From: an uncultured virus (IMG/VR IMGVR_UViG_3300035208_004867)
Lineage: Duplodnaviria > Heunggongvirae > Uroviricota > Caudoviricetes
Reading direction: 5' to 3' (one strand)
IMG/VR virus record: IMGVR_UViG_3300035208_004867
DNA length: 64,000 bases
Each line of letters starts with the position of its first letter. Position 1 is the stretch's first letter. The position numbers and the translations under genes are program-made. The notes beneath the pieces are model-generated. The model was not told the DNA's origin. It did not search any database and saw nothing but the letters and a program-made list of their open reading frames with translations. Shown one piece after another: positions 8,893 through 55,633 of this stretch.

Positions 8893-9759
8893 ATGAATGA
8901 ACCAAAAATATTAAATTTAGGGAATTTCTGCGATCTTCCTGCCGATTACTATGACGGAATTAAAAAAATGTCTGTTGAAATGGGACTCGAATTAACTGAT
9001 GATGAAATAAAAACAAAAAGTATCGGAATTCAGAACATGTATGAGAGTTTTGAAAATTGCCGTATTTGTACAGGACTTGAAACGTGTAAGAACGAGTTTC
9101 CGGGATTTGTTTATAATTATGACAAAGAAAATTCTGTTTTTTGCATTGGAAAGTGTGGAAGAAAAATTACGTATGACACAATGATGAAAAATGAGCAGTT
9201 GCTTGAATCATGCCATATTCCTTCAGTGTTACGACAGAAAAGTATTAAATCATTTACAGTAAATGAAAATAATACGGCTGCTTTTAATGCCGCATGTATG
9301 CAGATACGGTCTGAATGTCAGAAAGGATTAATACTCTATGGACCGACCGGTACAGGGAAAACCCATTTGGTGTCCGCTGTAATGAATAACAATATAATCA
9401 AGGGAAAAGTAGGCATATACGCGACGGTCCCGGAACTCATGGATAATTTAAGAAAAAGCGTAAAAGAAGGAAGGCTTGATGAAATTCAGGATGCCGTTGA
9501 AAAATGTGAAATATTATTTCTTGACGACATAGGAACTGAAACACCGTCTGATTTTGTCATAGAGGAACTTTTTAAAATAATCAATACACGGTATCTGAAT
9601 GACAAAAAAATAATAGGAACGACAAACCTTGATAAAAATGGATTGATAGAGCATTATCACGGAATAACCGGAGACCGGATAGTTTCACGGCTTTCAGAAA
9701 TGTGTGACTTTGTCGAGATTAACGGAAAAGATTTCAGATCAGAATATGTTGACAAATAA
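8893..9759 (+). CDS. DnaC/IstB-like helicase loader
   Basis: GPTGTGKTHL, LFLDDIG, R..SRL.EM; follows the initiator. Confidence 0.92.
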   Translation: MNEPKILNLGNFCDLPADYYDGIKKMSVEMGLELTDDEIKTKSIGIQNMYESFENCRICTGLETCKNEFPGFVYNYDKENSVFCIGKCGRKITYDTMMKNEQLLESCHIPSVLRQKSIKSFTVNENNTAAFNAACMQIRSECQKGLILYGPTGTGKTHLVSAVMNNNIIKGKVGIYATVPELMDNLRKSVKEGRLDEIQDAVEKCEILFLDDIGTETPSDFVIEELFKIINTRYLNDKKIIGTTNLDKNGLIEHYHGITGDRIVSRLSEMCDFVEINGKDFRSEYVDK

Positions 9760-14611: not shown

Positions 14612-15340
14612 ATGGATAAGAAACTTAACGGTACTTCGCTCGCTACAACAACAGACGTTCAGACATCCCTTAAGAGACACGGAAGACCGAGAAAAATGAC
14701 TCCGAAAATTCTTAAAGTTGTTTTTCAGATGACTCTTTCCGGCTATACTGATGAAGAGATAATAGAAGAAGTTAAAAATAAATGGGGAATTACCGTTGCC
14801 AAAAACACAATATATTATCACCGGCTTAAAAACAAGGATCTGTTTTATATTTGTGAAAAGGAACAGATACAGATAGCAGCAGTAAGAAGTCCTTACATGC
14901 AGCTGGCTACCAGAGTAGCGTCAATGCAGAGGGCAATCGAAAAAGAACTTGCTAAAAAGCGGCCGTCTGCTCAGGGATTGTCTATGTTGTATACGGCAAT
15001 GGAAACCGCAATTAAAAACGCAAAAGCATTTGAAATGAAACATGAAGAGATAGAACTAAGGAAAGAAGAACTAAAAAACGGGGAAGACAAGGATATTGAT
15101 AAAAATGAATATCTTGCATACATAGAAAAACGGTCAAAAAACATATCCAATGTAATAGATACGGAATATAAGATAATAGACGCCGGGGCGACAGAGGAAC
15201 TGGAAAAGAAAAACGGAAGCAAAGAAATATTATCTGAAGAAGAGGATGAAAAGACGGATGGTTACGGAAAAAGTGAAGAAGTAGATAAAAAGGAAAATGA
15301 CGGAGATAGAGACATTGGAGAAGAAGCTCTCCTTAAATAA
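14612..15340 (+). CDS. Probable terminase small subunit
   Basis: N-terminal HTH (GRPRKMTP); directly upstream of and overlapping the large subunit. Confidence 0.65.
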   Translation: MDKKLNGTSLATTTDVQTSLKRHGRPRKMTPKILKVVFQMTLSGYTDEEIIEEVKNKWGITVAKNTIYYHRLKNKDLFYICEKEQIQIAAVRSPYMQLATRVASMQRAIEKELAKKRPSAQGLSMLYTAMETAIKNAKAFEMKHEEIELRKEELKNGEDKDIDKNEYLAYIEKRSKNISNVIDTEYKIIDAGATEELEKKNGSKEILSEEEDEKTDGYGKSEEVDKKENDGDRDIGEEALLK

Positions 15341-16931
15341 TGCAGAAAAACTGAATACGGATTTTTCATCATCAGGAACAGAAATTCTTAAAGGTGATGC
15401 TTTTTTAAGATGGGTAATGTACCTTTTTTCGAATTCAGATGATACGCCTTATACTCCCGACTGGTGGCAGTCTTTGTATCTGAAGAATGAAGATGACTTT
15501 TTTATTACGAATAAAAGCCGGCGTATAGGATGGTCTTATATTACGGCGGACAAAGGATTGGGAAGAGCACTTGATCGTGCGAGAACTAATTATACTAAAC
15601 AGTTTGTTTCTTATTCTCTTGAAGATGCAATTGAAAAAATAAAGGTTGCCGAAGAGCATTATGATTCTATACGAGACTGTATGAAACCAAAGAAAATTAT
15701 AAGCCGGACAAAAACCAGACTTGAATTTCTTGATGCAGGGGGGAGGTCTGTGTCGCGTTTGATAAGTCTCCCGTGTAAACAGCCGCGCGGAAAGGGTGGA
15801 GATATTTCCCTTGACGAGTTTGCATTCCATGCCAAAGATACGCAGATTTACACGGCTGCACTTGCTGTTATCGCTAGGGGAGGGAGTCTTGAAATCGGGT
15901 CTACACCATTTGGAAACAAAGGATTATTCTTCGATATCTTCAACGATGAAAATACTTACAATGAATTCAAGCGTTGGAATATTCCTTGGTACTTTTCGGG
16001 GGCTTTATGTAAGGATGTCGTGAACGCAGTAAAAGACAAGGATCTGACCACCGAAGACAAAGTTATGAAGTACGGTACTATCCAGTTACAGAGGATTTTC
16101 CGGTCATATGCTATTGACGATTTTAAGCAGGAATTCGAGTGTTATTATCGTGACGACAAAGCGGCATTTATAACATTGGAGATGATACTCACGTGTACGC
16201 CGTCCGGTGGAAATGATAACACTGACGAAGATACTGTAGAAGTACATGAATACAAAGACCTTGACGAATTCATACTGGCGTATGATCCTGCAAAACAAGG
16301 GAATTTGTATGCCGGTTATGATGTCGGTCGTACTAATGATGCTTCGGAACTTATAATAATAGGTTACAACAATGATTTTAAAACGAAGTCGATAATTTTT
16401 CGTAAAAGTATGAAAAAGACAGGATTCGACGCACAGGAAGACATACTAAACAGACTCATGACAAGACTGCCGATACAGAGAATGTGTATAGATAAGACAG
16501 GACTGGGAATGGAGCTTGCAGAACATATGGAAGAACGCTACAAAAGGCGCGTAGAAGGATGTATGTTTACGAATGAATTTAAGGAAATTCTTGCTAACGG
16601 TACATGGCTTGGTTTTGACAGAAAAGAATTCAGGCTGCCGCATGACAAAGACTTGCAGCTGCAGATACATTCTATAAAAAAAATAATTACCATTAATAAA
16701 CATCAGCGGTTTGACTGTGACTCAAACAAGGATAATCATGCAGATGCCTTTTGGGCGATGTGTCTTGCCAATTATGCAATAGATGCCGGTCCGACATCGG
16801 CAGTGCATAAATCTAAATTTTATGGGCAGGTAAAAGAACAGAATGAAAAAGACGGTAATCATATCCGGGGAGAATCGCCTGCAGTAGCTATGAGCAGATT
16901 ATATCGGCATTACAATATTGTTAAAAAATAA
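15297..16931 (+). CDS. terL: Terminase large subunit
   Basis: NKSRRIGWS Walker A, LDEFAF Walker B, STPFG, GYDVGR, IDKTGLG, HADAFWA. Confidence 0.95.
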   Translation: MTEIETLEKKLSLNNAEKLNTDFSSSGTEILKGDAFLRWVMYLFSNSDDTPYTPDWWQSLYLKNEDDFFITNKSRRIGWSYITADKGLGRALDRARTNYTKQFVSYSLEDAIEKIKVAEEHYDSIRDCMKPKKIISRTKTRLEFLDAGGRSVSRLISLPCKQPRGKGGDISLDEFAFHAKDTQIYTAALAVIARGGSLEIGSTPFGNKGLFFDIFNDENTYNEFKRWNIPWYFSGALCKDVVNAVKDKDLTTEDKVMKYGTIQLQRIFRSYAIDDFKQEFECYYRDDKAAFITLEMILTCTPSGGNDNTDEDTVEVHEYKDLDEFILAYDPAKQGNLYAGYDVGRTNDASELIIIGYNNDFKTKSIIFRKSMKKTGFDAQEDILNRLMTRLPIQRMCIDKTGLGMELAEHMEERYKRRVEGCMFTNEFKEILANGTWLGFDRKEFRLPHDKDLQLQIHSIKKIITINKHQRFDCDSNKDNHADAFWAMCLANYAIDAGPTSAVHKSKFYGQVKEQNEKDGNHIRGESPAVAMSRLYRHYNIVKK

Positions 16932-17011
16932 TACTGTATTTATAAAACAAAACATCAGGTATTGATAATAATATAAAACCATAGTAAGATTTATTTATAA
17001 GGACGGTAAAA

Positions 17012-17287
17012 ATGAATGAAAATGTAGTTGTAACAGGTAATCTAAATTTATCATTACCTACCGGAGATAAATATATTGCTTTTATCTCCGGTCCTATTTC
17101 AGGTGATAAAAATTATAAACAAAGATTTTCTGCTGTACAAAAGAAGCTGGAAGATAAAGGCTATGTAGTAATTAATCAATGCGGAACAGTAGTGTTTCTT
17201 GACAGATGGAGACATTCAGAAGGTGCAAAACTTGAAATGGTCCACTCGATAAAAAAAGACAAGATAATTATTTTGAAAAGGAGATAA
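17012..17287 (+). CDS. DUF4406-like protein, apparently internally deleted
   Basis: FISGPISG..F....L...GY.VIN joined directly to C.TVVFL..W..SEGAKLE. Confidence 0.55.
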   Translation: MNENVVVTGNLNLSLPTGDKYIAFISGPISGDKNYKQRFSAVQKKLEDKGYVVINQCGTVVFLDRWRHSEGAKLEMVHSIKKDKIIILKRR

Positions 17288-18217
17288 AGTATGAAAAATA
17301 AAAGCTTAATGAATAATATCAAAAAAAAGAATATAACTAAAAAAGTCCGCGATCTTATGAAACTTACCGGAGCAACATCTGACTCCATTATAAACATTGC
17401 AAAAGGTATGATAAAAACATACCATTATGCGCCGGAAGTGGCATTGAATGTAATGGAAAAACAGCTTACAAAACGGGCGGCTGAGTTGCATACAACGGTA
17501 AGGGATATGCTAGCAGGAATGGAAAAAGCAGATAAAATGACTATGAGAGATTATCTGCCCATGATCAAATCAGACTCTACTCTTGATGTTATTGCAAAGC
17601 AGCCGCCGAAGGTTATTCGGTGAATAAAGAAAATATTATAACTCTTGCCCGTAAAAAGGCAGGGGATACATTATGTTTTCAGTGCCCTGATAAGATAAAA
17701 ACAGAGTGTACAAAACTGAATAACGGCGGTATGTCGTGCGAAGCACTGTTTGAGAAATATTTAGAGGACGGAAATGAAAGACATAAAAATAAAATCAATA
17801 GATGATGATATAAGCGCAGACATGCGTGAAATTTGGTTGTACATTGATTGTATCAATAATGAGTACAGAAATAAAAATCCTATGAGTACACCATGGTTTG
17901 AAAATTTATCTAAATGTTGTGAATCTTTGTCGAAATCGGCATTAAAGATGTTGGAATTATGTAAACATAAAATAGATATTCAATCTTATTTTATTGTCTA
18001 TTTTGGCTATGAAGGTAATTATACAATTACAAAGGGTAATTATCTCACAAAACAAACAGCAGTATATTGTCCGCGTTCTGATGGATTGCAAGAACCCTTG
18101 GGGATTGTAAATACAACAGAAATAATAAGTGATGAAATTGCATACGCTAAAATGACGCATTTAGATGATCATTTTTATTCAGCAGAAAGATTAAATTTTT
18201 TTTTATTGGACCAAAAT

Positions 18218-18285
18218 ATATTTTTAATTACCTATTGACAAATATATAAATAGTTGTATACTGATACTTGTGATCGGGAGTTACC
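18218..18285 (+). promoter_or_regulatory. Strong sigma70 promoter plus leader, copy 1 of a 68-bp inverted duplication
   Basis: TTGACA-17-TATACT; identical to the reverse complement of 45774-45841. Confidence 0.9.
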
Positions 18286-18626
18286 CGACAAGGAACACGG
18301 CCCACCCAACAGAGCGCCGGATCAAAGGAAGCAGAAAAATGAAAAGACATTTATATGATTTTTTCCTAATTAAAAACGACAGGCCGGAATATGTATTCTC
18401 CGGTTATATGTCAATTCTGGATCATGGTGCAGAAAATATAGAGTTCTACAACCATTCTAAAAGTTTGTTTAAAAAAATAAAGAGGTATAGTAATTTGTTT
18501 GTAAAAATGAATTATGGATACGTCGAGTATAAATAAGGAGTTACAAAGAGGATTGTTTTTTCAATCTTCCCGATTTCTGGAGGTAACTGTAATGCCTCCG
18601 GAAAAGGAGAAGACTGTTATTTTATA

Positions 18627-18690
18627 GTCGAAATGGCGCGATGAACGCCGTCACGCGGATACGTCCTACCGCGTCTGATGATGACAGGAC
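18627..18690 (+). ncRNA. Type II hammerhead ribozyme with loop I / 3' tail pseudoknot
   Basis: GTC-GAAA, stem III ATGGCG/CGCCGT, GTC cleavage triplet, stem I ACGCGG/CCGCGT, CTGATGA, T-GAC, pseudoknot GTCCT/AGGAC. Confidence 0.85.
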
Positions 18691-18705
18691 ATGAGGAGGA
18701 AAATT

Positions 18706-19116
18706 ATGTTTAATCACATACTCGTTATCGGATGGATGTTTATGGCCGGATGGGTGCCATTCGACGATAATGGATTTACAAAATATAATAATCAGTTTTA
18801 TTCTGATTATAAAAACTCCACGCACATTGATATGGAGTTTAACGCGCTATTTATAGATCATATTAATGTACGCGGTGGAATAGAATCTTGGCAGTATCCG
18901 GTTGCCATTGATGACTGGACTCCATATAAAATTAAATTCAATATAGGGATGGACTTATCATTATTTGAATTCAATAAAAAAGAATTTAATGTATATTTGT
19001 CTGTTGACAGATATTGTTCGCATCCGGTAAATTTATGGAATAATACCGCCGGATGTGTAAACAACGCGTATTGTGAGGTTTCAATAAAATTCAAGGGGAC
19101 AGCAGATATATTCTGA
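18706..19116 (+). CDS. Putative exported or outer-membrane beta-rich protein
   Basis: Hydrophobic N-terminus, alternating beta patterns, C-terminal Phe; GAGGAGG RBS. Confidence 0.45.
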   Translation: MFNHILVIGWMFMAGWVPFDDNGFTKYNNQFYSDYKNSTHIDMEFNALFIDHINVRGGIESWQYPVAIDDWTPYKIKFNIGMDLSLFEFNKKEFNVYLSVDRYCSHPVNLWNNTAGCVNNAYCEVSIKFKGTADIF

Positions 19117-19582
19117 TTTTATAAGGAGGAGATGTTATGATTTATGATGAAATCCGGCTTGCGCTTATGAAGGCGCAGATATCGGAAAAAATCGTTTCCA
19201 TGGTAAATAAAATCACCATGGAGCATCTGGAAGAGATCAGCCATGAATGACTGGTATATTTTCGACAAGACCGGAATCATAGAGGTTTCCGGTCTGTCAC
19301 AGAAAGATGCGTTTGAGCTGGTGGATGATCTCCGCGCATGTGAACCGGAATCCGGCTGGCAGTGCGCGGAAGACAAACCTGAAAATGGTGATGTGGAGGA
19401 AGCATGAAAATATCAACACGTGATTATGGCATCTACTGGGTATATTATAACTCCCGGTGGATGCTGGCTGATTTTCAGTTCGGTGACTGGTACATGTTCG
19501 GTACCGGAATTGAAATGAAAGACACCGATTTTTCAGAGATCGGCCCGATGGCGGAATTCAGCAACAAGCCGGAGGATAAAAA

Positions 19583-19840
19583 ATGAGTATTACTCATAAC
19601 CATCATGTATATTATGCCGGACGGATGTTTTATAGTCTGTCTGAAGCATCAATCGAGTTGAATGTATCGCTTAAGACGATATATTTAGCGCTCGACTCCG
19701 GTTTTTTAAGGGGAAAACCGATAACAGATCAGGAACCGGATATTGTAGAACCGGTTGTCATAAAAAAACAGCATCATGCCGGAGAACCGTTGATCCCGCA
19801 TCCTGTTGTCGACATGATATCCAGTAACTGGAGGGGATAA
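19583..19840 (+). CDS. Small NUMOD1-like HTH protein
   Basis: FYSLSEASIELNVSLKTIY. Confidence 0.55.
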   Translation: MSITHNHHVYYAGRMFYSLSEASIELNVSLKTIYLALDSGFLRGKPITDQEPDIVEPVVIKKQHHAGEPLIPHPVVDMISSNWRG

Positions 19841-20500
19841 ATGATTGATAAATTATTTGCCGTAAGTGCAATAGCAGAGTTTGCTGCATTGATGTCCGGC
19901 AACCGAGCCGCGATTGTGATATGCGGAATAATTTTCTGCATATTTTTATTTTTGGAATGCAGAGGGATGAAATAAATGATTGAACCTGATATTGGTTATA
20001 CATGTCCTCATTGTGGTAAAAAAACCGAACCTATTGTATTTAAAAGGTGTGACGGAACAATGGAATCGGAGCCGAGTTGCAAATTCTGCGGTTCAAAAAC
20101 ACCGCAGAATATAATAGAAAAAATAATATTTGGAAACAATGTTTTGGAAGAAGGTCATAATGTAGGGAAAGACTATATTTCAAGTAATAACACAGAAAAA
20201 ATTACTGAAAAAAAAATTGTAGAAATCATTATTGCAGCAAAAAGTGATGATTCTTTTGAGCGGGTATATCAATTACTTAATGTTTATATTCAGAATTATT
20301 CTGAAAAAATTCGTAGATTGGAAGAAAAGTTTAATTCCGTGTACAAAGAAGCACAAAATATCTTAGATATTATAGGAGAAATTAAAATATAAATATCGCT
20401 CAAAACCTGACATGCTCGAATGTTCTGATGAAAAAACGCACGGCCACTATGAATTAGTGGAGGAATAAGATGAAAAAAAGATGTTTAACAAGGGGGAAAT

Positions 20501-23390: not shown

Positions 23391-24677
23391 ATGGATGCAC
23401 GGGAAGACAAAAACAGACATATAGCAGAAACTATAAAGCATACGTATGAGAAACGTGCAGAGCAGATATGCCGTGTCTTCACTGTCAAGGTTCAGGATAA
23501 CAAACTGTCCAAAAGACAGCGAGAACAGCTTAAGATGATGTTCGTTGAAGCAAAGTGGCTTAAAAACTCAATACTTGCATGGTCAAATAATAACCCTGAT
23601 AACAAGATATGGGACTATGATACAAAACAGAACGTAATAACACATAAAGATAAAGATATGCATGATGTAGAAGTAGAACTTAAATATATTCCTGCATCAG
23701 TTAAGCAGTGTGTTCAGTCTGAAATGATAGCAAATATAAGGACTATAAGTTCATTGAATAAGAAAGGATTGCAGAAAGGAGGAAAACTTAAATTCGTAAG
23801 CGAAGTTAAGTCACTTAACTTTAAACAGTACGGCAAGACGCATAGGATAGTATCATCAAAGAGGATAAAGTTGCAGGGTGTCTCTGGTACGGTTACGGTT
23901 AACGGTATGAACCAGTTTTATGGTACTGACGTTGAATATGCCAATGCAAAACTGCTGAATACACCTCTTGGGTATTATGTGCAGTTTACTACATATCAGG
24001 CAAAAAGCAGTATTGTAAAGAAAGAAGACAATGGTAAAGTTATAGGTATAGACTTCGGGTGTTCTACTGCCTTTACGACAAGTGAAGGGGAAAAAATACC
24101 TGCGTCAATTCAAGAAAGTGAACGTATAAAGCGTCTTTCAGCAAAGATGAACAGACGTCAGATAAAAGGTTCAAAGAACTGGTACAGGACAGTAGGACAG
24201 ATAAGGAAAGAATATCAGAAGATGACAAACCGGAAGAACGATCTTGCCAATAAGATAACTGCTTATTTCAATGAATACAAAACCATTGTTATTCAGGACG
24301 AACAGCTTTCAAACTGGATGAAGGGCAACCACGGAAAAGCGGTACAGCATTCAGTTATGGGAAGAGTAAAGGCTAAACTTATGCTCAACCCTAAGACTAT
24401 AGTACTTTCAAAAACTGTGCCGACTACAAAGTTGTGTACTTCATGCGGTCAGTATCATGATGATATGAAGGTATGGGACAGGACGTTCACATGCGGATGC
24501 GGAGTAAACATGGACAGGGATGTTCATGCCGCACTTGATATGGTATGGTTTTATGAGCATAATGTAGGTGTGGGACACACCAATTTCAAGCGTGCGGAGA
24601 TGGAAGCTCTGGTTTTAAGTGCTTTAAGTACCGGGAACCAACTTGCGTCTGTGAAACACGAAGCTGACTGTCTTTAG
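23391..24677 (+). CDS. tnpB: RNA-guided endonuclease TnpB
   Basis: GIDFG (RuvC I), IVIQDE (RuvC II variant), CTSCG..CGCG zinc finger, DRDVHAA (RuvC III). Confidence 0.93.
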   Translation: MDAREDKNRHIAETIKHTYEKRAEQICRVFTVKVQDNKLSKRQREQLKMMFVEAKWLKNSILAWSNNNPDNKIWDYDTKQNVITHKDKDMHDVEVELKYIPASVKQCVQSEMIANIRTISSLNKKGLQKGGKLKFVSEVKSLNFKQYGKTHRIVSSKRIKLQGVSGTVTVNGMNQFYGTDVEYANAKLLNTPLGYYVQFTTYQAKSSIVKKEDNGKVIGIDFGCSTAFTTSEGEKIPASIQESERIKRLSAKMNRRQIKGSKNWYRTVGQIRKEYQKMTNRKNDLANKITAYFNEYKTIVIQDEQLSNWMKGNHGKAVQHSVMGRVKAKLMLNPKTIVLSKTVPTTKLCTSCGQYHDDMKVWDRTFTCGCGVNMDRDVHAALDMVWFYEHNVGVGHTNFKRAEMEALVLSALSTGNQLASVKHEADCL

Positions 24678-31119: not shown

Positions 31120-31255
31120 GGTTCTGTAGTTCAGTGGTAGAACGGGCGCATATTCTACGCCAGCGAGCCTCAATCGTAAATGATTTTTACGGTATTAGTA
31201 AAGGCCAATGTAGATTAATCATCTACAAGCGCAGGTTCAAATCCTGCCGGAACCT
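31120..31255 (+). ncRNA. tRNA-like RNA with a ~70-nt structured insert
   Basis: Acceptor GGTTCTG/CGGAACC, D-arm GTTC-AGTGGTA-GAAC, T-arm GCAGG-TTCAAAT-CCTGC; non-canonical anticodon arm. Confidence 0.8.
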
Positions 31256-34792: not shown

Positions 34793-35023
34793 ATGAATAA
34801 AACAAATTGCTCTGGATGCTACAACAATATTTACAATGGGAACAATTCGCACGGTGTCAAGGAATGCTGGAGTCTCAAAATCGCTAAGATGGTTTGGCGC
34901 GTTCGCGTCGGGAACTTTGAGGAGCCAAAATACTACAAAGGCCGTAAGGCCATACGCGTTCCAGACTGCTATCGGACAGGATCATGCGGGGATAAGTTTC
35001 TTGATCCGTCATGTGCAAAATAA
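34793..35023 (+). CDS. Cys-rich cassette-borne protein
   Basis: Single ORF between GTTAGGA (34725) and TCCTAAC (35028). Confidence 0.7.
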   Translation: MNKTNCSGCYNNIYNGNNSHGVKECWSLKIAKMVWRVRVGNFEEPKYYKGRKAIRVPDCYRTGSCGDKFLDPSCAK

Positions 35024-35027
35024 AAGT

Positions 35028-35077
35028 TCCTAACAACGGTTTCGACTGGACTAAAGCCAGTCAAACCAATGTTATGC
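35028..35077 (+). other. Integron attC site
   Basis: R'' TCCTAAC-5-L'' TTTCGACT ... L' AGTCAAA-5-R' GTTATGC, with one extrahelical base. Confidence 0.85.
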
Positions 35078-45756: not shown

Positions 45757-45773
45757 ATAAACCGTCCTTATCA

Positions 45774-45841
45774 GGTAACTCCCGATCACAAGTATCAGTA
45801 TACAACTATTTATATATTTGTCAATAGGTAATTAAAAATAT
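45774..45841 (-). promoter_or_regulatory. Strong sigma70 promoter plus leader, copy 2
   Basis: Exact inverted copy of 18218-18285. Confidence 0.9.
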
Positions 45842-45849
45842 TTTGTGTA

Positions 45850-53905: not shown

Positions 53906-55633
53906 ATGGGTGTAAGTCCTGTAGTATTTGAGACGGCCGGCCAGAGAACGCAACATTATATTCCCGGCGTATATACAAGAAATGCTTTTATCAAGGGAAG
54001 CGGTGGAGGAGTCTCTGCAAATGTAGGTGTTATACTTGGTCCGTCCAAAGGCGGTACACCTGATACACTGCTGCAGTTTGCATCTCCATCAGAAGCGAAA
54101 GCAACACTGCTTGATGGCGATCTGTTGCGCGGCGTATATTTTGCATTCAATCCCGGTGCAAGTCTTGTCCCGCAGTATGTTTATGCAATGAGAATTAATG
54201 CCGGATCACAATCTTCAGGAACAATGAAAGACAGCGTACCAGCTATCCAGATTTCATTGACTTCTGTGGATTATGGTGTCCATACAAACAGCATATCAAG
54301 AAAGTTTGAAGCAGGAAGTACTCTGGGAACATACAAGATAACAATCAAATATGGTAATACCGATACTGAATCATGGGATGATATAACACATCCGTCTTTC
54401 TCAGTACAGTACACAGGCAGCGGTACAGCTTGTGTTATGACACTTACTACATCCGGAATAACTACAACAGTAGACAGTGTGGCTGATCAGAGTATAAGCT
54501 TTGATACTTACACAACTGTACAGGATTTAGTTGATTATATAAATACACTGACTAACTATCAGGCCACTCTTGTAACCGGTGACGGATCTGAAAAAACAGT
54601 GGAACTTGATACAGTAACTTCTTCCGATATTAAAACAGCAGCGTATACAGTACATGCCGATTTAATGGAAATTATCGACACAATCAATCAGTCTGCTTAT
54701 GTGACTGCCGCACATCCTTCTGCTACTACAACGAGAATTGTTCCTGCCGTTGATACAGCTTATGTTTATCTTTCCGGGGGAACTTCCGGTACACAGACAT
54801 CTACCGACTATGAGAATGCACTTACGGCACTTGAAACAGAAGATGCCTCAATGATAGCAACTACATCTACAGATGAAGCTGTACATCTTCTTATTCAGCA
54901 GCACTGTGAAAGTATGTCAGGTACAACCGGCAAGCATGAACGTATGTTCTGGGTTGGAGGCTCTTCGGGTGAAACGGTTGCCGCAACTATAACCAGAGCT
55001 AAAAACCTCAGCTCGGAATACGGTAATCTTTGTTTTCCCGGATTTACCGCATATGATCCTGTTGATACTGACAATGGAATATCCACTTGGTCCTGTGCAA
55101 TGTATGCCTGTAAACTTATCGGGCAGGAGATGGCAGTCTCCGTCAACGAACCTCTTACTAATAAACAGATAAGTGTACTGTCATGGGAAAAGACATTAAC
55201 AAAGACGGAAACAGAAAAACTTATTGCAGGCGGTGTTACAGCAGGTGCGAAAGATGATTCCGGAAACTTTATCACGGTCAGGGCTGTAACAACCTATCAA
55301 GGAGATCTTCTGCAGAAGAATGAACGTTCTATGATGCGTGAAGCTTTATATATGTCAAAAGATTTCCGTGCAGCGTTTGCCGGTGATATAGGCCGTCCTC
55401 AGTCAGCAGTTGATACAGGAACCATATCAAGTGTGCTTAAATCAAAGGCTGTGTCTTGGAAAAATTCAGGATATATAGTCAAGGGAACAGATCATGACTT
55501 GATATGGGGTATAACTATGACAGAAGACGGGGATGCTCTTTTTGTTGAGTATCATGTATATCTTACAGCACCCAGAAACTTTATTTTCGGCACGGCTAAC
55601 CTTCACGTATTGAGTGAAACGGTTGCTTTGTAA
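53906..55633 (+). CDS. Tail sheath protein
   Basis: IPGVY, GPSKGG.P, LSGGTSG, EPLTNK, VRAVTTY. Confidence 0.92.
   Translation: MGVSPVVFETAGQRTQHYIPGVYTRNAFIKGSGGGVSANVGVILGPSKGGTPDTLLQFASPSEAKATLLDGDLLRGVYFAFNPGASLVPQYVYAMRINAGSQSSGTMKDSVPAIQISLTSVDYGVHTNSISRKFEAGSTLGTYKITIKYGNTDTESWDDITHPSFSVQYTGSGTACVMTLTTSGITTTVDSVADQSISFDTYTTVQDLVDYINTLTNYQATLVTGDGSEKTVELDTVTSSDIKTAAYTVHADLMEIIDTINQSAYVTAAHPSATTTRIVPAVDTAYVYLSGGTSGTQTSTDYENALTALETEDASMIATTSTDEAVHLLIQQHCESMSGTTGKHERMFWVGGSSGETVAATITRAKNLSSEYGNLCFPGFTAYDPVDTDNGISTWSCAMYACKLIGQEMAVSVNEPLTNKQISVLSWEKTLTKTETEKLIAGGVTAGAKDDSGNFITVRAVTTYQGDLLQKNERSMMREALYMSKDFRAAFAGDIGRPQSAVDTGTISSVLKSKAVSWKNSGYIVKGTDHDLIWGITMTEDGDALFVEYHVYLTAPRNFIFGTANLHVLSETVAL

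Follow-up and report, generated by a model that had tools for sequence, protein, structure and literature searches.

The closest described relatives of the element analysed here are the type II hammerhead ribozymes of the Rfam family RF02276 and of Perreault 2011 (PMC3088659). As described there, loop I forms a pseudoknot of at least 4 bp with the nucleotides after stem II, and stem II itself can be 2 bp. Prophage hammerheads are clustered and flank single genes, and it has been suggested that long phage transcripts are cut in this way into gene-length mRNAs (PMC3088659, PMC6765202). The processing of polycistronic transcripts is still put forward as a hypothesis for the role of the phage type II class (PMC6765202). 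In vivo cleavage has been reported for three predicted type II hammerheads near phage-like genes in Desulfovibrio vulgaris (PMC8782182). HHphage, from the haloviruses HF1 and HF2, lies like the present element a few nucleotides before a start codon (13 nt there), and a transcript 5' end was mapped within 3 nt of its cleavage site (PMC3088659), which sets a precedent for a ribozyme that defines the 5' end of an mRNA. A pseudoknot hammerhead whose crystal structure was solved in 2024 is built differently, its pseudoknot taking the place of helix II, and is not the nearest form to the element (PMC11300833).

The window, by which we mean the whole 64,000-nucleotide stretch of DNA that was analysed, comes from a tailed phage with contractile-tail genes, and contains a large terminase (15297-16931) and a tail sheath (53906-55633). 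The phage is myovirus-like, its long ORFs are almost all on the plus strand, and the element at 18627-18690 is located on the coding strand of an intergenic spacer. In its core, its permutation and the pairing of loop I with the 3' tail in a pseudoknot, the element agrees with RF02276 and the type II hammerheads of Perreault 2011, and it occupies the same kind of phage intergenic context between co-directional genes (PMC3088659). It differs from RF02276 by an inserted U after A9 together with one more stem II pair, which appear as a 2-nt insertion in cmscan, by a U15.2.G16.2 wobble in place of C-G, and by a loop I without the consensus UGG. The core of HHphage has an atypical insertion near C3 and a high-salt dependence (PMC3088659), whereas the core of the window element is the consensus one. 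Judging from the sequence comparisons presented below, we consider it very likely that the 18627-18690 element is a functional self-cleaving type II hammerhead, which would cut after C18652.

Architecture and surroundings of the element

The preliminary description had named a complete hammerhead core, stems I and III of 6 bp, a 3-bp stem II with one extra T, a complementarity between GTCCT in loop I and the tail AGGAC, and a GAGGAGG ribosome-binding site just 3' of the element, ahead of a start at 18706. All of these are present, base for base, as listed here.

18627-18629, plus strand: 5' strand of stem II, GUC, read from the sequence and paired with 18683-18685 in the alignment to the family model
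18630-18633, plus strand: core G12 A13 A14 A15.1 (GAAA), from the sequence and from the alignments to Rfam and to the family model
18633-18651, plus strand: stem III hairpin of 6 bp with a 7-nt loop (strands 18633-18638 and 18646-18651)
18650-18652, plus strand: GUC triplet, closing at C18652
18652, plus strand: C17, with predicted cleavage between 18652 and 18653, from its position in the alignments to Rfam and to the family model
18653-18674, plus strand: stem I hairpin of 6 Watson-Crick bp (strands 18653-18658 and 18669-18674) with the 10-nt loop AUACGUCCUA
18675-18681, plus strand: core C3 U4 G5 A6 U7 G8 A9 (CUGAUGA), from the sequence and from the alignments to Rfam and to the family model
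18682, plus strand: extra U between A9 and G10.1, from the sequence
18683-18685, plus strand: 3' strand of stem II, GAC, paired with 18627-18629
18686-18690, plus strand: 3' tail of the pseudoknot, AGGAC, complementary to GUCCU of loop I at 18663-18667
18693-18699, plus strand: strong Shine-Dalgarno (SD) sequence GAGGAGG, from the sequence

The ATG at 18706 follows both the element and the SD sequence. Stems I and III each carry a closing loop and stem II is open, which corresponds to a type II permutation in the descriptor match. All the nucleotides that define the hammerhead core (C3 U4 G5 A6 N7 G8 A9 / G12 A13 A14 / A15.1-U16.1 / H17) are in place. The three pairs that adjoin the core, A18653-U18674, G18683-C18629 and A18633-U18651, are all formed, with pair 10.1-11.1 set off from A9 by the inserted U. 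From 18633-18638 to 18646-18651, the stem III pairs are A-U, U.G, G-C, G-C, C-G and G-C, and they include A15.1-U16.1 and the U15.2.G16.2 wobble. Loop I pairs over at least 4 bp with nucleotides immediately 3' of stem II, as type II pseudoknots do. In the register of the family described below, 18663-18666 pair with 18687-18690, that is four of the five family pairs, one of which is U-A where the consensus is G-C. The first family pair (C18662 facing A18691) is unformed in the window and is likewise unpaired in 34 of the 133 relatives, and A18686-U18667 is a possible extra pair.

A fold of 18537-18730 gave pair probabilities of 0.66-0.89 for stem III and 0.78-0.97 for stem I; stem II is too short to be predicted by folding without the pseudoknot. 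The folding energy of 18620-18700 is no better than that of shuffled sequences (z = 0.17), and is therefore uninformative when taken alone. In a 491-nt context the probability of stem III falls to 0.03, the downstream coding sequence being predicted to out-compete it, a competition that would be tempered by the later transcription of this downstream sequence.

The surroundings of the element comprise the following features.

18212-18294, plus strand: promoter and leader block of 83 bp, holding a sigma-70-like site at 18235-18262
18339-18536, plus strand: upstream small ORF of 65 aa, with AAGGAAG ahead of its ATG
18574-18604, plus strand: 12-bp hairpin without a U-run, from the minimum free energy fold of 18537-18730, between the 65-aa ORF and the ribozyme
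18621-18701, plus strand: conserved block made of the ribozyme and the SD sequence, with 1 difference in 81 in a contig from run X7
18706-19116, plus strand: downstream ORF of 136 aa with a hydrophobic N-terminus

The strong promoter-like site at 18235-18262 reads TTGACA-16-TATACT (11 of 12). Using blastn, a second copy of the 83-bp block, with 95% identity, was located at 45765-45847 of the minus strand, and such a repeat of promoter and leader together is a reasonable indication that the 18235 site is a real promoter. The inverted repeat may function as a common regulatory module such as an operator. Its second copy is followed by a 158-aa ORF on the minus strand (45756-45280) that belongs to no Pfam family, and by a further minus-strand start at about 45267. 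No terminator-like site was found on the plus strand between the 18235 promoter-like site and the ribozyme. The 18574-18604 hairpin, which is not conserved in the run X7 relative, may stabilise the 3' end of the upstream mRNA or serve as a processing site. Neither the 136-aa nor the 65-aa ORF belongs to a PHROG or Pfam family, and the 136-aa protein has no relatives in viral_contigs.

Two other regions of the window deserve mention. Rfam reports a tRNA match of 44.6 bits at 31120-31255 (plus strand), with an acceptor stem, a D arm and a T arm and with a long insertion after an anticodon-arm-like hairpin, 82 nt being present where the model expects 17. ARAGORN found no tRNA anywhere in the window. 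The region could correspond to a tRNA-like element or to a tRNA interrupted by an intron or insert. A 428-aa ORF at 23391-24677 (plus strand) matches PHROG transposase families (phrog_506, E 6e-35). It is located just past 23053, where the nearest virus record, G001, reaches its contig end.

Related elements in phage contigs

The window was searched with our own descriptor of hammerhead types I-III. With strict settings, which demand a minimum of 5 bp in stems I and III and of 3 bp in stem II, the descriptor matched the 18627-18690 element only, and gave no match in 100 dinucleotide shuffles, both strands being considered. A loose form gave 2 matches in the window against 13 in 100 shuffles. 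The second of these, at 15379-15489, lies inside the terminase gene with minimal stems and loops of 24 and 53 nt, and was counted as chance.

The preliminary description had proposed a comparison with the Hammerhead_II model using Infernal. On a 96-nt stretch, for which the Rfam filters are laxer, RF02276 matched 18626-18693 over model positions 1-66 of 66, with 29.3 bits and an E-value of 1.1e-4. The model is thus matched from end to end, but the score stays under the RF02276 gathering score of 37 bits. Rfam returned no hammerhead on the whole window at the gathering threshold or at E<=1, nor on 301 nt at E<=10.

We collected relatives of the element from IMG/VR using as bait the signature GTCGAAA, 14-22 nt, GTC, 18-26 nt, CTGATGATGAC, in which the sequences of stem I, stem III and the tail are left free. 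At least 135 loci carry this signature; they are spread over 113 contigs of IMG/VR and yield 133 distinct elements. With the exact stem I pattern, viral_contigs gave no match. The bait constrained no more than the core and stem II, and yet stem III reaches at least 6 bp in 129 of the 133 elements, stem I has at least 4 contiguous bp in 119, and loop I and the tail can form a pseudoknot of at least 4 bp in 123, as compared with about 62 when the tails are permuted among members. The pseudoknot mostly starts one base after stem II (87/133). The elements were aligned with MAFFT and the structure was written from the alignment columns. Standard pairs occupy 93.7% of the cells; the corresponding value is 65.1% in shuffles and does not exceed 46% when the partners are slid. 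Double changes are seen in 746 cells, against 199 in shuffles. Compensatory changes were observed in all 5 pseudoknot pairs and in all 11 variable pairs of stems I and III.

A covariance model built from this alignment, with the window left out, matched 18625-18699 over model positions 1-74 of 74 with 58.3 bits (E 4.2e-12), a score that is due in part to the 21 bait bases, which were taken from the window pattern and are invariant in the model. The bait has no bearing on the stems, the loop lengths or the pseudoknot register. The next-best match of this model in the window has 16.2 bits and no stems, and the search leaves a single hammerhead copy in the 64 kb. The matches at 15351-15435 (minus strand), 8984-9019 and 34994-35048 (minus strand), at 11-16 bits and without stems, were rejected.

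Twenty of the loci, of at least 135, were submitted to cmscan. They hold 39 elements with the bait pattern, and 27 Hammerhead_II matches reached the gathering score, with 37.6-50.2 bits: 20 of them are among the 39 bait elements and 7 are further hammerheads without the bait pattern. As many members pass the gathering score, the collected set belongs to RF02276. In these same loci, 19 of the 39 well-formed bait elements go unreported at the gathering threshold, so that a score below threshold is common among good members. Relative to the Rfam consensus, the 2-nt insertion after CUGAUGA seen in the window element recurs in the high-scoring relatives.

The window element shares with the collected set the GUC/GAC stem II, the extra U, a conserved A after GAC, a pseudoknot that starts one base after stem II, and an SD sequence and start codon about 20 nt downstream. 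Its stem and loop lengths (class 19/22) are the third commonest among the 133 elements. An SD-like word and a start (with at least 30 codons) follow within 60 nt in 106 of the 133 elements, which is the modal arrangement, and the distance from the end of stem II to the start has a median of 22 nt in the family and is 20 nt in the window. The downstream ORFs of the family are small, with a median of 95 aa for 81 closed ORFs. On the upstream side, 128 of 133 elements have an open frame of 40 codons or more whose end lies no further than 200 nt away, the median gap being 2 nt. From these distances on both sides, the family elements are wedged between co-directional small genes, in agreement with the clustered prophage hammerheads around single genes described in PMC3088659 and with the proposed cutting of phage transcripts into gene-length mRNAs (PMC3088659, PMC6765202). 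The window element departs from the set by a U instead of a C at position 15.2, by its 90-nt gap to the upstream ORF as compared with the family median of 2 nt, and by its single copy in 64 kb.

Several copies are seen on some contigs. Among the matches listed, IMGVR_UViG_3300019889_000009 contributes six loci (about 33.8-41.8 kb; L037-L039 and L106-L108), while L098 and L102 hold 4 copies each. In all of these the type II hammerheads are spaced by 300-850 nt and each precedes a small gene. Some copies on the same contig are identical in their ribozyme part, for example those at 1501 and 2817 of L037, and Rfam finds extra copies without the bait pattern in L037, at 1219, 1703 and 2498.

Altogether, the reading of the element as a pseudoknotted type II hammerhead, already made in the preliminary description, is supported by the full-length RF02276 match, by the 58.3-bit match to the family model and by the covariation of the family pseudoknot. 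The window element shows every structural feature of the type II class, and falls short only of the Rfam cut-off and of the C found at position 15.2 in the family.

Two sequence deviations, a mosaic relative and alternative readings

The extra U after A9 was fixed by the bait, and hence occurs in all 133 collected elements. A signature without it (CTGATGAGAC) was found in at least 127 loci, and the 124 distinct elements obtained from them have the same stems and pseudoknot. IMGVR_UViG_3300045988_044240 contains both forms, with and without the U, in otherwise near-identical elements. Since the form without the U is equally abundant and one contig has both, the extra U is a common polymorphism, a frequent natural variant and no defect. 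Hammerheads can accommodate an additional nucleotide between A9 and G10.1: the CChMVd (+) hammerhead has one, and changing this extra A to U raised its trans-cleavage rate 3-4-fold (PMC3705267). An extra nucleotide at the same place of the core is also conserved in hammerheads of Penelope-like elements (PMC4209133). These forms are of type III or I, belong to viroids and eukaryotic retroelements and rely on loop-loop contacts or dimers, unlike the phage type II.

Position 15.2, which the bait did not fix, is a C in 133 of 133 family elements. In the window this position is U18634, and its pairing with G18650 is a U.G wobble (U15.2.G16.2) instead of the family C-G pair. The GAAAU form of the signature gave 0 matches in IMG/VR viral_contigs and 14 in metagenome contigs, two of which, L146 and L139, are well formed. 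L146 is the same phage as the window (99.98% over 5,059 nt). L139 is the sole independent well-formed example of U15.2 among these matches, with a stem III of 8 bp, a stem I of 6 bp and a pseudoknot of 6 bp. L140 parses badly, and the other 11 matches are essentially without stems and thus have the appearance of chance matches. The wobble is therefore rare; it may lower the cleavage rate and leaves the helix unbroken. On a bolder and rather unlikely reading, natural U15.2.G16.2 variants of this sort may be tuned for slow or conditional cleavage.

Conservation was assessed by comparing contigs of four public DNA runs over 17800-19800. The run X7 relative, a 14.3-kb contig (record 16), matches 18298-18325, after which 252 unrelated letters replace 18326-18620, the region of the 65-aa ORF. 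The block made of the ribozyme and SD sequence (18621-18701) comes next, and the contig then continues directly at 19135, the 136-aa ORF being absent with 18702-19134. From 19135 to 19403 it matches with 24 differences in 269 nt (about 9% diverged). The two mosaic joints, 18620/18621 and 18701/18702, are the two edges of the ribozyme-plus-SD block, and the right one falls between similar SD-to-ATG contexts (18693-18708 and 19126-19139). The gene downstream of the ribozyme in the X7 phage would be the 37-aa ORF whose start in the window is at 19137. The retention of 80 of 81 nucleotides next to 24 differences in 269, with the flanking ORFs replaced or absent, argues for selection on the block. 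In run X2, a low-depth contig of 180 nt matches 18648-18687 with 3 differences and is possibly another related ribozyme. A blastn search of 17000-20500 against the phages collection gave no match. G001 covers the window from 23053 only, and shares with the region just the 83-bp promoter repeat. The relatives of the terminase are two distant contigs with 28-31% identity, too far for synteny.

A mere co-occurrence of core words and hairpins, without ribozyme ancestry, has next to no probability in our view. Rare chance motifs are expected somewhere in the very large volume of sequence that was screened, and stemless pattern matches such as those of the GAAAU form do occur, but the strict descriptor found none in 100 shuffles, and all three helices and the pseudoknot stand in the family register with lengths of a common class. 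Moreover, a mosaic relative retains the element, which is intergenic, on the coding strand and at the modal SD distance. Chance does not account for the motif. A second alternative is a hammerhead that has decayed or become very slow: the element would descend from the family, its cleavage would be impaired by the U15.2.G16.2 wobble and the shortened pseudoknot, and it would act mainly as a structured spacer or be disappearing. The invariance of C15.2 in the family is in line with such a decay, as are the absence of the GAAAU form from viral_contigs, its two well-formed instances among 14 in metagenome_contigs, one being the same phage, and the Rfam score under 37. Shortening the pseudoknot from 6 to 4 bp also lowered k_obs about 20-fold in a construct of Perreault 2011 (PMC3088659). 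The 15.2-16.2 pair is nevertheless kept by U.G, the strictly conserved core bases are all intact, the block is retained in the X7 relative amid far more divergent DNA, and 19 of 39 good family members are likewise below the Rfam threshold, so that we regard decay as improbable.

The ribozyme-plus-SD block could also be chiefly a recombination linker for small gene cassettes, cleavage being secondary, which is compatible with a functional hammerhead. The X7 joints do coincide with both edges of the block, the right one between similar SD-to-ATG contexts, and many contigs (3300019889_000009, L098, L102) have several near-identical copies flanking single small genes. We give this little credence, as the window has one copy only, the comparison covers a single relative, phage mosaicism ordinarily gives joints at gene boundaries, and the covariation of stems and pseudoknot indicates selection on RNA structure, beyond mere DNA identity. 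A tentative and rather unlikely extension is that the block serves as a portable inter-cistronic linker, which would insulate cassette mRNAs by cleavage and at the same time supply homology for the swap, gain or loss of cassettes.

Proposed mechanism and significance

In the functional hammerhead that we favour, the transcript would probably start at the 18235 promoter. Stem III and then stem I would fold during transcription, and the tail AGGAC would pair with loop I and stack on the short stem II, with stems I and II parallel. The core would then cut between C18652 and A18653. The upstream product would contain the 65-aa ORF and close with the stem III hairpin, bearing a 2',3'-cyclic phosphate at its 3' end, near which the 12-bp hairpin at 18574-18604 would sit. 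On the downstream product, a 5'-OH would mark the base of the stem I hairpin, and the distance from this end to the SD sequence of the 136-aa ORF would be 40 nt. The likely benefit would be to uncouple the two cistrons, each with its own structured, exonuclease-resistant end and hence a separate stability, and a fixed 5' context for the downstream ribosome-binding site is a possible further payoff.

Phage genomes very commonly carry this family, of which the window element is an ordinary member that will not surprise a ribozyme specialist. The element adds one well-supported instance to this class. Standard Rfam scans of the whole window miss it; among the submitted loci, Rfam likewise leaves out roughly one well-formed relative in two. 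Finally, because the element is conserved across a mosaic junction, the window and the X7 phage, which have the same ribozyme with different neighbours, form a natural construct pair for the effects of cleavage on mRNA stability and translation.
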